A stretch of 64,000 bases of DNA from an uncultured Gammaproteobacteria bacterium (lineage in GTDB: Bacteria > Patescibacteriota > Patescibacteriia > Veblenbacterales > UBA10138), in the NCBI GenBank assembly GCA_964348825.1, contig CAYGDX010000004.1:517-64516 (forward strand), read 5' to 3'. This document shows, piece after piece, positions 44,677 through 47,649 of this stretch. The notes under the pieces were generated by a model. That model saw only the letters and a list, made by a program, of their open reading frames with translations. It was not told the DNA's origin and ran no database searches. Made by a program: the position numbers and the translations under genes. The stretch's first letter is position 1. Each line of letters begins with the position of its first letter.

Positions 44677-47649
44677 ATGAAAGAATTACCCAAGGCCTAT
44701 GAAGCCAAACAATACGAGAATTCAATTTACAAGATTTGGGAAGAATCCGGCTTTTTTAATCCTGACAATTTACCGGGAAATGGTGAGTCGTTTACTATTA
44801 GCATGCCACCCGCTAACGTGACTGGTGTCTTACACATAGGGCATGCCACTTTTGTTACTCTGCAAGATTTAATGGTTAGATTTGCTAGAATGCAGGGTAA
44901 AAAGGCGTTGTGGTTGCCTGGCACAGACCATGCCTCCATTGCTACTCAGAATATTGTGGAGAAAAAAATATGGGAGGAAGATAAAAAAACTCGTTTTGAT
45001 TTTAGTCGCGAAAAATTTATCGAAATTGTATCTAATTTCGCTGAAAAATCACAAGTCGTTATAAAAAGTCAAATACGGTCTTTAGGTGCTTCATGTGATT
45101 GGTCACGCGAGCGTTACACTTTGGATACTGGTTTGACCAAATCAGTGAATGAGGCCTTTATTAGGTTGTATAATAATGGTTTGATTTATCGTGGAAAGAG
45201 AATGGTAAATTGGTGCACGCGATGTGGTACTACTTTGGCAGATGATGAGGTTGAATACAAAGAATCAATTAATAAATTTTATTATTTAAAATACGGCCCG
45301 CTTATAATTGGTACGGCCCGTCCAGAAACTAAGGTGCTTGATAAAGTGGCAATTGTGCATCCAGATGATGAGCGTTATAAACAGTATGTCGGTCGTGAAT
45401 TTACGATTCCTTGGATTTTGGGTGACATAAAAATAAAGGTGGTGGCAGATAAGATGGCAGAAATAGAAACTGGCACAGGTGCAATGAGTATTACCCCAGC
45501 CCATAGTTTTGTGGATTTTGAATTGGCTCAAAAGTACGACTTTGAAATAGTAGATATTATTGGTCCAGATGGTAAGTTAACTGGTAATACTGGTAGATTT
45601 TCTGGGTTAAAAGCAAAAGAAGCACGGGTGGCAATTATAGAGGAGTTGCAAGCTAAGGGCTTAGTAGATCGTATTGATGAAAATTATAAGCACAATTTGT
45701 CAATTTGTTATCGTTGCGGTATGCCAATTGAGCCAATGCCACTAGAACAGTGGTTTGTGGCGGTAGATAAGCCTTTTAAAATGGGTTGGTTTAAAAAAAC
45801 CACATTAAAAAAGTTAGCACTTGAAGCTGTGCGCAGTGGGCAGATAAAAATTATTCCGGAAAAGTTTGAGAAAGTTTATTATAATTGGATGGAAAATTTG
45901 CATGATTGGTGTATTTCGCGCCAGATTTGGTTTGGACATAGAATTCCGGTGTGGTACCGAGAAAAAGTCAGGAAGTCAGGAAGTCAGGAAGTTAAAGATG
46001 ATTTAAATAATAAAGAAGTTTTTGTTGGCGCTGAAAAACCAGAGGAGAAAACGAACTTTGTTTTCTTGCATGGCTTTTACGCAACTTTAGAAGTGAAAGA
46101 TCCACTTAAATGGTTATACGAACAGTTACCAGGGGCAAATAATTTTTGGTCTTTGCTTCCCGGTTATGATAAATCTGGTTCGAAGGAGGTCCAAATAAAA
46201 TACGTGCTTGATCATGCCACAATAGATGAGAATACAGTAATTGTTACGCACTCACGTGGCGGTAAACTGGCTATGAAGCTTCTAGAAGAAACAGGTAGGC
46301 AGGTAAAGGGATTAGTTTTAATCGTAGCTGGTATTGGCGGTAGAAAAATAGAAGTTCCTGATTCTGGTGAATATGATAGCTTTGATTTTAAAAAAATAAA
46401 GTCATTAGTAAAAACACAGATAGTTTTATTTGAAGCCACTGAGGATCATGTGCGTGCACCCGAGGCATATCAAACTTTAGCGCGTGAGCTTAATGCAAAA
46501 CATATTAAAGCTGAGAAATCCGCCTCTCATTATAATCAAGCAGAAGCCTCAGAAGTATTAGAAGAATTAAAAAAATTTATTTGGGTTCAGGATCCAGATA
46601 CTTTAGATACTTGGTTTTCTTCTTCACTTTGGACATTTTCCACTCTAGGTTGGCCTGATCAAACTATTGATTTAAAAACTTTTCACCCCACGGAAGTTTT
46701 GGAAACTAGCTATGATATTTTGTTTTTTTGGGTGGCAAGAATGATATTAATGTCTAAATACTTATTGCGACAAGTTCCCTTTAAGACAGTTTATTTACAT
46801 GGTTTAGTGCGCGATAAGCAGGGGCGCAAGATGTCTAAATCGCTTGGCAATGGAATTGATCCTTTGTTGATGATTGGTAAATATGGAGCTGATGCAACTA
46901 GATTAGCTTTAATGATAGGAACCACACCGGGAAATGATGTTCGAATGTATGAAGAAAAAATTGCCGGTTATCGCAATTTTATAAATAAGCTTTGGAATAT
47001 CTCACGCTTTATTTTAATGAATGTAACCGAGGTAAAGCTTTCGGAGGTAGCACCTACACCAGTAACCACAGCTGATCGTTGGATTTTGTCACGCTTATCA
47101 AAAATTACAAAGGAGGTCACTGAGCATATTGAAAAATTTGAATTTTCTCCAGCAGGTGAAAAGCTCTATGATTTCACTTGGCACGAACTCGCGGATTGGT
47201 ATGTGGAAATTGCAAAAATTGAAGGCGGTAAAGACGCGATGCTTAGTTGGTGCTTACAAACGATACTTAAATTATGGCATCCTTTTACGCCATTTGTAAC
47301 CGAGGTATTGTGGGGTGAGATATTTAATACAGGAAAGATGTTAATGGTAGAATTTTGGCCAAAAATTGTTGGACAAATAGATGAAAAAGCGGAAGCGGAA
47401 ATAAAAATGGTTCAAGAAATTGTGACTGTGATTAGGAATTTTAGATCGGAGAATAAAGTTTTACCAGATAGTATACTCAACTGTACTGTATCCGTTAAAA
47501 ATAAGGACGGATTGTCAGATACGGAAATAATGTTGATTGAAGGTTTACGTACAAAAGTGAAGGTTTTACATAATATTACTGAATCAAGTATTGAAATTAA
47601 AGTAGGTGATTACATTATTAATTTTAGCGAGGCATTGACAGATTTATAG
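44677..47649 (+). CDS. valS: Valyl-tRNA synthetase carrying an in-frame ~210-aa inserted YdeN/RBBP9-type alpha/beta serine hydrolase domain (approx. nt 45958-46590)
   Basis: HIGH (LHIGHA), editing domain, KMSKS. Between GHRIPVWY and [11 protein letters not shown] lies [11 protein letters not shown]...LKWLYEQL...[16 protein letters not shown]...[10 protein letters not shown]...[15 protein letters not shown]...SASHYN, which matches the YdeN/RBBP9 hydrolase family. Confidence 0.85.
   Translation: [990 protein letters not shown]

Follow-up and report, generated by a model that had tools for sequence, protein, structure and literature searches.

The 64,000-nucleotide stretch of contig CAYGDX010000004.1 analyzed here (hereafter, the window) comes from an uncultured bacterium assigned by GTDB to the Veblenbacterales (Patescibacteriota) and contains valS, the gene for valyl-tRNA synthetase (ValRS). 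The product of this gene carries, within the loop known as connective peptide 3 (CP3), a complete additional domain predicted to be a serine hydrolase of the RBBP9/YdeN type. An annotation made earlier from the sequence alone (the first-pass annotation) had proposed such an in-frame hydrolase in an otherwise canonical ValRS, and the proposal is borne out by matches to Pfam and PDB, profile comparison, the predicted fold and a conserved catalytic triad. We lean toward the view that the hydrolase is a passenger enzyme acquired as a cassette.

The isolated insert matched PF06821 (Ser_hydrolase), the family to which the first-pass annotation had pointed, with a score of 24.2 bits against a gathering cutoff of 22 (E = 3.5e-5); the generic alpha/beta-hydrolase families in Pfam matched it more weakly. 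The top hits of a phmmer search against the PDB were human RBBP9 (2QS9, 9FCR) and YdeN from B. subtilis (1UXO). When a profile built from six ValRS-embedded copies was compared with human RBBP9 using hhalign, the match had a probability of 97.6% (E = 2.9e-12). A profile search of a large protein database with the insert returned 92 matches, all 92 carrying PF06821; some bear the name RBBP9/YdeN family hydrolase, and others are metazoan RBBP9-like proteins. Nested relatives of the insert in ValRS, leucyl-tRNA synthetase (LeuRS) and UvrB scored between 24 and 54 bits against PF06821. A single-sequence search of an indexed set of 5.8 billion proteins gave no match to the insert, which reflects the word-index limit of that search and not a true absence.

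Structure prediction pointed to the same family. The AlphaFold2 model of the hydrolase domain alone had a predicted TM-score (pTM) of 0.76 and a predicted local distance difference test score (pLDDT) of 69.6. With this model as the Foldseek query, ranks 1 to 7 in the PDB were all occupied by RBBP9/YdeN structures (TM-score, 0.69 to 0.78; E, 2e-8 to 3.5e-7), and larger esterases ranked lower, with a TM-score of 0.6 or less. Sequence, profile and predicted fold agree in assigning the insert to the RBBP9/YdeN-type serine hydrolases, which have a minimal, lid-less alpha/beta fold. The features of the insert are as follows.

46042-46581, plus strand: nested RBBP9/YdeN-type alpha/beta serine hydrolase domain, residues 456-635 (180 residues), predicted from PF06821, hhalign and Foldseek.
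46069-46074, plus strand: His465-Gly466 of the FVFLHG block (which starts at residue 461), the likely oxyanion-hole region, following the strand at residues 460-465; invariant in ValRS-embedded copies.
46246-46260, plus strand: predicted nucleophile elbow T-H-S-R-G, residues 524-528, with Ser526 at 46252-46254; aligns with G-H-S75-S-G of RBBP9.
46444-46446, plus strand: putative catalytic acid Asp590 (in TEDH, from residue 588), following the strand at residues 578-587; aligns with Asp138 of RBBP9; invariant.
46528-46530, plus strand: putative catalytic His618 (in SASHYN, from residue 615), following the strand at residues 608-612; aligns with His165 of RBBP9; invariant.

The four hydrolase motifs FVFLHG, THSRGG, TEDH and SASHYN were found where the first-pass annotation had placed them. 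In the model of the full-length protein, Ser526 lies between a strand (residues 520-525) and a helix (residues 527-539), the canonical strand-Ser-helix arrangement. The LHG block, H-S-x-G, the Asp and the His are invariant across eight ValRS-embedded copies that are 44-64% identical to the window insert; the embedded copies are about 40-65% identical among themselves. Long-standing selection has preserved these catalytic residues. Ser526, Asp590 and His618 make up a predicted triad of the RBBP9/YdeN kind with a single deviation, at the elbow (THSRG). In the profile alignment, the invariant E559, located in a low-confidence loop of the model, falls within one position of Glu108 of RBBP9, which anchors the alpha-amine of the substrate. 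Overall, the insert shares with characterized RBBP9/YdeN structures (PF06821; 2QS9, 7OEX, 9FCR, 1UXO) a predicted lid-less fold of about 180-190 residues and the order of the triad (S75/D138/H165). It differs from them in being nested in another enzyme, in having T-H-S-R-G rather than G-H-S-x-G at the elbow and in its low identity to RBBP9 (about 21%).

The remainder of valS encodes an otherwise canonical, intact ValRS, with the signature and editing residues all retained. The product exceeded the cutoffs of two NCBIfam valS equivalogs (PRK05729.1, 927 bits versus 704; TIGR00422, 891 bits versus 612); both matches were split into two stretches, and the match to Pfam tRNA-synt_1 was likewise in two pieces. 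The full-length AlphaFold2 model had a pLDDT of 87.6 and a pTM of 0.84. The synthetase motifs listed in the first-pass annotation (HIGH, WCISRQ, GHRIPVWY, DTWFSS and KMSKS) were likewise confirmed at their positions. In an alignment of 63 ValRS sequences, CP1 motif residues G266, G268, T273, P274, H276, D280 and A284 were invariant; in TARPETK and the second CP1 editing motif, T213, R215, T218, T273, H276 and D280 were invariant or nearly so. The host features are listed below.

44677-47649, plus strand: valS, valine--tRNA ligase, complete, with the nested hydrolase; one uninterrupted open reading frame (ORF) of 990 amino acids.
44833-44844, plus strand: HIGH signature, residues 53-56; H53 invariant and H56 nearly so among the 63 aligned ValRS.
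45472-45528, plus strand: CP1 editing-site motif, residues 266-284, intact; aligned with Thermus ValRS GTGALKVTPAHDPLDYEIG.
45907-45957, plus strand: last conserved host motif before the loop, residues 411-427 (WCISRQ from 411, GHRIPVWY from 420); about 90% of nucleotides shared with the sister gene as far as this motif.
46582-46623, plus strand: return strand and host motif, residues 636-649 (DTWFSS from 644), where the second half of the Rossmann fold begins; homologous to the sister gene.
46828-46842, plus strand: KMSKS signature, residues 718-722, from motif position and the 63-ValRS alignment.
47074-47469, plus strand: anticodon-binding domain, residues 800-931 (Pfam PF08264, E = 5.9e-37).

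The C-terminal coiled-coil tRNA-binding arm (PF10458) is an accessory rather than a defining feature of bacterial ValRS. A Pfam scan found no such arm in the valS product or anywhere in its nearest clade; the arm is present in more distant ValRS of the candidate phyla radiation (CPR) and in other bacterial ValRS. At 47470-47649 (residues ~934-990), the model gives a small beta-rich domain in place of the PF10458 arm.

By its position, the enlarged loop is the CP3 subdomain, a variable element that leads from CP2 into the second half of the Rossmann fold and binds zinc in Thermus; the name CP3 is taken over from the literature on isoleucyl-tRNA synthetase (IleRS) (PMC7191050). To survey this loop, we used 118 close relatives of the window ValRS; all the named ones are Patescibacteria (Kerfeldbacteria, Veblenbacteria, Komeilibacteria, Buchananbacteria and others). 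The distance from WCISRQ to DTWFSS is 233 residues in the window valS, as opposed to 40-58 residues in about 74 of the 118 relatives, in line with the unusual length claimed in the first-pass annotation. The stretch between GHRIPVWY and DTLDTWFSS is usually about 20-35 residues long, and the same loop in Thermus ValRS has only about 28 (1GAX residues ~419-448). The window loop occupies the same place in the chain as the CP3/zinc hairpin of class Ia synthetases (Thermus ValRS 1GAX, IleRS), from GH(R/Q)IP.WY to D..DTWFSS. However, an ordinary CP3 is a non-catalytic element of 30-60 residues, whereas the tip of the window CP3 hairpin bears a whole enzyme. Relatives of the window ValRS keep a CxxC...CxxC loop, whereas the window ValRS has no zinc cysteines.

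The boundaries of the insert were set by comparison with the nearest ValRS, that of sister gene P0002, which is 75% identical in the host part and has no hydrolase. The P0002 locus is collinear with the window: RNase Y, YmdB, HU and ValRS are followed by a type II secretion system-type ATPase on the opposite strand. In both protein and DNA alignments, the sister gene has AGEG where the hydrolase sits. The DNA flanks of the insert are about 90-95% identical to the sister gene, and homology resumes at TTGGGTTCAGGATCC, about one base ahead of 46582. As placed by these alignments, the hydrolase cassette substitutes for the four-residue turn of the CP3 hairpin. The first-pass annotation had given the inserted domain as 45958-46590; this span does cover the whole stretch between the host motifs, but its foreign part is limited to 46042-46581 and is preceded by a linker and the native hairpin strand. 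Three features precede the 5' junction.

45958-46011, plus strand: hypervariable low-complexity linker, residues 428-445 (pLDDT below 50 for residues 436-443).
45965-45992, plus strand: perfect tandem repeat of AAGTCAGG, 3.5 copies of period 8 with 100% match in Tandem Repeats Finder.
46012-46041, plus strand: native CP3 hairpin strand, residues 446-455, homologous to EIYVGVEKP of the sister gene; residues 446-450 form a strand in the model.

The triple tandem 8-mer reported in the first-pass annotation is real, is far too long to have arisen by chance and is found in both assemblies of the gene described below. The sister gene does not share it and has, as the counterpart of the linker, an unrelated, longer low-complexity stretch. 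Elsewhere in the window, neither the 8-mer nor either of its register shifts by one base occurs in more than a single copy, the sites being 8415 and 37580-37581. The proposal that the repeat is a footprint of the insertion event did not hold, because the true 5' junction is reached only some 50 nt downstream of the repeat, with the native hairpin strand in between, the linker is also rearranged in the hydrolase-free sister, and no copy of the 8-mer was found at the 3' junction. A target-site footprint was likewise ruled out by the sequence 3' of the repeat, VKxD and E(V/I)(F/Y)VG(A/V)EKP, which has a homologous counterpart in the sister gene. Our first MAFFT alignment of the DNA apparently broke at the repeat, a placement that was overturned by gap-tolerant realignment and by the protein alignment. 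The repeat is best read as the product of replication slippage in an unconstrained linker, three units of which would happen to preserve the reading frame.

We then examined what the CP3 loop contains in the 118 relatives. About 20 of them have a histidine phosphatase (PF00300, two subtypes), about 12 have a module of 120 residues, and 6 have an RBBP9/YdeN hydrolase. One relative (P0028) combines the phosphatase with the 120-residue module, and one (P0110) combines the phosphatase, a second, unassigned module and the hydrolase. The architecture of the window ValRS recurs in at least 10 further ValRS proteins or fragments of genes, of which several are incomplete. The CP3 loop of CPR ValRS is a hot spot for exchangeable modules, up to four of which occur together. 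Searches of the rest of the window with tblastn found no further hydrolase, NUDIX, histidine phosphatase or 120-residue module.

In the PF00300-bearing ValRS (P0003, P0006, P0012, P0103, P0107 and others), the phosphatase domain is flanked by the CxxC...CxxC cysteines of the zinc hairpin. The 120-residue module (an approximate length), present in P0004, P0016, P0023, P0032, P0054, P0074, P0112 and others, has the sequence pattern MGFAExV.PxVLxGxKTxTYRxxDH. Its Pfam matches (ASCH, DUF3850 and endosialidase beta-barrel) were all subthreshold, and it had no sequence match in the PDB. An ASCH assignment was not adopted, as the best E value was 0.002; by sequence, the module may be a PUA/ASCH-like barrel.

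The most elaborate loop was that of ValRS L003 (CAYNBD010000063.1, ~3300-5640), the informative ValRS among the matches listed in a back-translated pattern scan of genome contigs. Its CP3 loop has a histidine phosphatase followed by three tandem hydrolase copies. The 90-nt linkers after copies 1 and 2 (4399-4488 and 4984-5073, encoding CDECPEILAELENELPKDDIYVG) are 88% identical in DNA; by eye, the hydrolase copies seem to be less than half identical in protein. The linkers suggest insertion of cassettes, or gene conversion, by way of the linkers. The record is labeled Gammaproteobacteria, and its ValRS looks CPR-like.

The hydrolase is not confined to ValRS. An exhaustive HMMER search of representative proteins with the window insert yielded 90 clusters. 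About 40 of these are LeuRS, where the hydrolase sits at two or more sites, often in proteins that also have NUDIX; 4 are further ValRS; and about 35 are free-standing hydrolases of about 180 residues. Single examples of nesting were found in alanyl-tRNA synthetase (AlaRS), in the GTPase Der/EngA (between its two G domains), in SecA, in UvrB and in a GNAT fusion. Proteins with a nested hydrolase outside ValRS include P0127, P0131, P0146, P0184, P0177, P0123, P0133 and P0176. One of the CPR LeuRS, P0184, also contains an in-frame IS200-type Y1 transposase domain.

The history of the insert was drawn from identities and neighbor-joining trees. In a tree of host sequences only, the window ValRS groups with P0002 in a clade without the C-terminal coiled coil. 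No other member of this clade has the hydrolase, their loops being empty or occupied by a histidine phosphatase or the 120-residue module; the remaining ValRS with a hydrolase group apart, in a distant clade of their own. The closest relative of the insert is that of hydrolase-bearing P0121, at 65% identity, while the host parts of the two proteins are 44% (N part, residues 238-444) and 56% (C part, residues 637-895) identical; with hydrolase-free clade mates, the host identities are 72-91% and 70-75%, respectively. The simplest reading is that the window lineage gained the cassette laterally from another valS. In the tree of hydrolases, one clade unites the ValRS-embedded copies with the copy embedded in Der; P0207 and the third copy of L003, both ValRS-embedded, were placed outside the main ValRS clade. 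Cassettes appear to switch hosts occasionally, and nesting seems to have arisen several times independently.

What the nested hydrolase does may be approached through its characterized homolog. Human RBBP9 hydrolyzes aminoacyl-type substrates and, to the extent given in PMC8866121 and in the citation of Shenoy 2020 by PMC7730578, it is the only family member of known activity. It has aminopeptidase activity, and Leu/Ile adducts are among the acyl-enzymes trapped with it (PMC8866121). It also activates valacyclovir, an L-valyl ester prodrug (Shenoy 2020, as cited in PMC7730578). The protein was first described as a binding protein (PMC8866121).

The reading that we hold to be somewhat more probable than all others is that the domain is an autonomous passenger enzyme with a housekeeping role, acquired as a cassette and made one-to-one with the essential ValRS. 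An RBBP9/YdeN cassette would have been taken up by recombination into the permissive CP3 loop and would fold as a separate lobe at the tip of the hairpin. It would be catalytically active, stoichiometric with ValRS and, by analogy with RBBP9, able to release, from an ester or amide, an aminoacyl group whose alpha-amine is free; ValRS itself would work without it. The window valS would represent one case of a CPR-wide pattern in which the surface loops of essential proteins house small hydrolase cassettes, with RBBP9/YdeN hydrolase, histidine phosphatase, NUDIX and the 120-residue module making up the cassette pool. The passenger model is favored because the hosts include SecA, UvrB and Der and because the ValRS loop accepts unrelated guests. 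Since the sister gene has no hydrolase and other guests occupy the same loop, the hydrolase appears to be dispensable for ValRS. A role strictly specific to ValRS is disfavored by the nesting of the same family in SecA, UvrB and Der.

Several observations weigh against this account. The PF06821 match is borderline, falling to 20.3 bits, just under the cutoff of 22, when scored within the full protein. The confidence of the domain model is only moderate (pLDDT 69.6), and its loops score under 50. At the elbow, the first Gly of G-x-S-x-G is replaced by Thr in the window insert and by Ala or Thr in its relatives, and hydrolase activity is only predicted for bacterial members of its subfamily. About 90% of the nested copies are in editing-type synthetases (LeuRS, ValRS and AlaRS), a bias that could reflect a functional link to aminoacyl-tRNA and not mere permissiveness. 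Finally, the case for lateral transfer compares regions under different constraint and uses a partial protein, P0121.

The same bias lends some credit to an additional proofreading or deacylation site, which would clear mischarged aminoacyl-tRNA(Val) or a misactivated adenylate in cis and complement CP1. The aminoacyl groups on which RBBP9-type enzymes act have a free alpha-amine, and one such substrate is, according to the secondary citation above, the L-valyl ester of a nucleoside analog; the position of E559 near Glu108 of RBBP9 fits substrates of this kind. The reaction would be that of the known editing deacylases (CP1, AlaX, YbaK/ProX and DTD), hydrolysis of the aminoacyl ester at A76 of tRNA, although their folds are unrelated to that of the insert. 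Editing factors are not known to include an alpha/beta serine hydrolase. The CP1 editing motifs of the window ValRS are fully intact and leave nothing to replace; the hydrolase as a substitute for a decayed CP1 site was rejected on this ground. Moreover, the sister ValRS does without the hydrolase, other ValRS house a phosphatase or the 120-residue module in the same loop, one ValRS has three hydrolase copies, and SecA, UvrB and Der handle no aminoacyl-tRNA. We consider a proofreading role rather unlikely.

Given the peptidase activity of RBBP9 and its Leu and Ile adducts, the domain might instead free N-terminal hydrophobic residues from scavenged peptides beside the synthetase that consumes them. 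The chief hosts are indeed synthetases for Leu, Val and Ala, and CPR bacteria are devoid of most amino acid biosynthesis. However, free amino acids diffuse quickly and proximity would bring little gain, and the idea does not suit SecA, UvrB and Der as hosts. An aminopeptidase feeding the synthetase is in our estimate improbable.

A non-catalytic lobe, whether structural, tethering or regulatory, or a pseudoenzyme that is tolerated or binds a partner, would account for the departure of the elbow from G-x-S-x-G and would recall the original description of RBBP9 as a binding protein. It is difficult to reconcile with the invariance of the Ser, Asp, His and LHG block over copies that are 40-65% identical, or with the conservation of the domain, which is about as high as that of the host itself, and we regard it as very improbable.

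That the insert is an artifact of chimeric assembly or frameshifted fusion, or an intein that would remove itself, is almost certainly wrong: the weak PDB sequence matches to the PolB intein were nonsignificant (E = 0.3 to 0.5), the frame is continuous, the identical 990-residue product is encoded on a 176.8-kb ENA contig and a separately assembled Logan contig (two samples), and the same nested architecture recurs in many independent metagenomes. Chimeric assembly and frameshifted fusion were rejected on the continuous frame and the identity of the two assemblies. The intein, already discounted in the first-pass annotation, was rejected because a Pfam scan of the product found no intein or Hint match and the junctions, EKPEE/KTNF and KKFI/WVQD, have neither a Cys/Ser...His-Asn boundary nor a +1 Cys/Ser/Thr. 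In GC content the insert matches its flanks, which argues against a very recent foreign import.

The passenger enzyme does resemble inteins in one respect: both lie in frame in conserved housekeeping proteins, and their hosts (synthetases, SecA and helicases) overlap. Unlike inteins, the nested hydrolase has no Hint fold or splicing residues, occupies a surface loop rather than a catalytic motif and is presumably retained in the mature protein. Another comparable case is NCBIfam NF040702 (isoleucine--tRNA ligase, N-acetyltransferase domain-containing), which also joins a class Ia synthetase to an unrelated small enzyme domain, although both host and guest domain differ from those in the window. 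None of the NCBIfam models matched in the valS scan describes a ValRS with a hydrolase.

Other unusual genes were noted in the window, all on the minus strand. The 494-residue protein at 27848-29332 combines a class II (Asp/Lys/Asn-type) synthetase core (residues 19-347) with a C-terminal MGS-like domain (residues 389-477), an unusual fusion; no anticodon-binding domain was detected in it with Pfam. At 23912-25723, a RadC-like JAB domain is fused to a D12-class N6-adenine DNA methyltransferase (603 residues). Two ORFs away, at 21492-23009, lies an AlwI-family restriction endonuclease (505 residues), and the ORF between them (23014-23919) encodes 301 residues. The region from 21492 to 25723 probably encodes a restriction-modification unit in which the RadC fusion is odd. 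GMP synthase, encoded at 16355-18247, has 630 residues, about 100 more than usual, and matches GMP_synt_C twice (residues ~454-485 and 547-629). This pattern suggests an insertion or a partial duplication inside the GMP_synt_C domain and may be a further case of an expanded loop in this genome.

Few known enzymes are as conserved as the class I synthetases, whose CP1 to CP3 insertion sites are textbook structure. The component families and the insertion of domains into synthetases are already known as kinds. In the literature, within which subscription journals were thinly covered, we found no description of a ValRS or LeuRS with an RBBP9/YdeN hydrolase, a histidine phosphatase or NUDIX, and, with the same coverage, none of cassette-like nesting in CPR housekeeping proteins. 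Judging from sequence and model, the CP3 of a housekeeping ValRS can bear a whole, apparently active serine hydrolase, and across CPR several unrelated small hydrolases dock as modules in this loop. Reduced genomes would in this way package accessory enzymes inside essential proteins, an arrangement that appears to be undescribed. There is also a practical side, as nested insertions disturb marker-gene alignments and automated naming; several proteins with such insertions are labeled in public databases only as "class I tRNA ligase family protein."

For the poorly understood RBBP9/YdeN family, the window valS offers a concrete bacterial handle. The sole characterized activity of the family, removal of aminoacyl groups with a free amine, amounts in chemical terms to aminoacyl-tRNA editing. 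Were the nested hydrolase to act on aminoacyl-tRNA or aminoacyl-adenylate, it would bring a new fold to translational quality control. A broader reading, which we put forward tentatively and think unlikely as a whole, joins two propositions. CPR bacteria would maintain a pool of shuffled cassettes (the hydrolase, two types of histidine phosphatase, NUDIX and the 120-residue module), moved by recombination into permissive loops of essential proteins of translation and maintenance (the CP3 of ValRS, and LeuRS, AlaRS, Der, SecA and UvrB) and sometimes nested three or four deep; and through the hydrolase, ValRS and LeuRS would acquire a new activity outside CP1, hydrolysis of aminoacyl esters, by which mischarged tRNA or by-products are cleared. 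If true, this would amount to an unrecognized route of protein building in reduced genomes and to a new class of synthetase-associated hydrolase.

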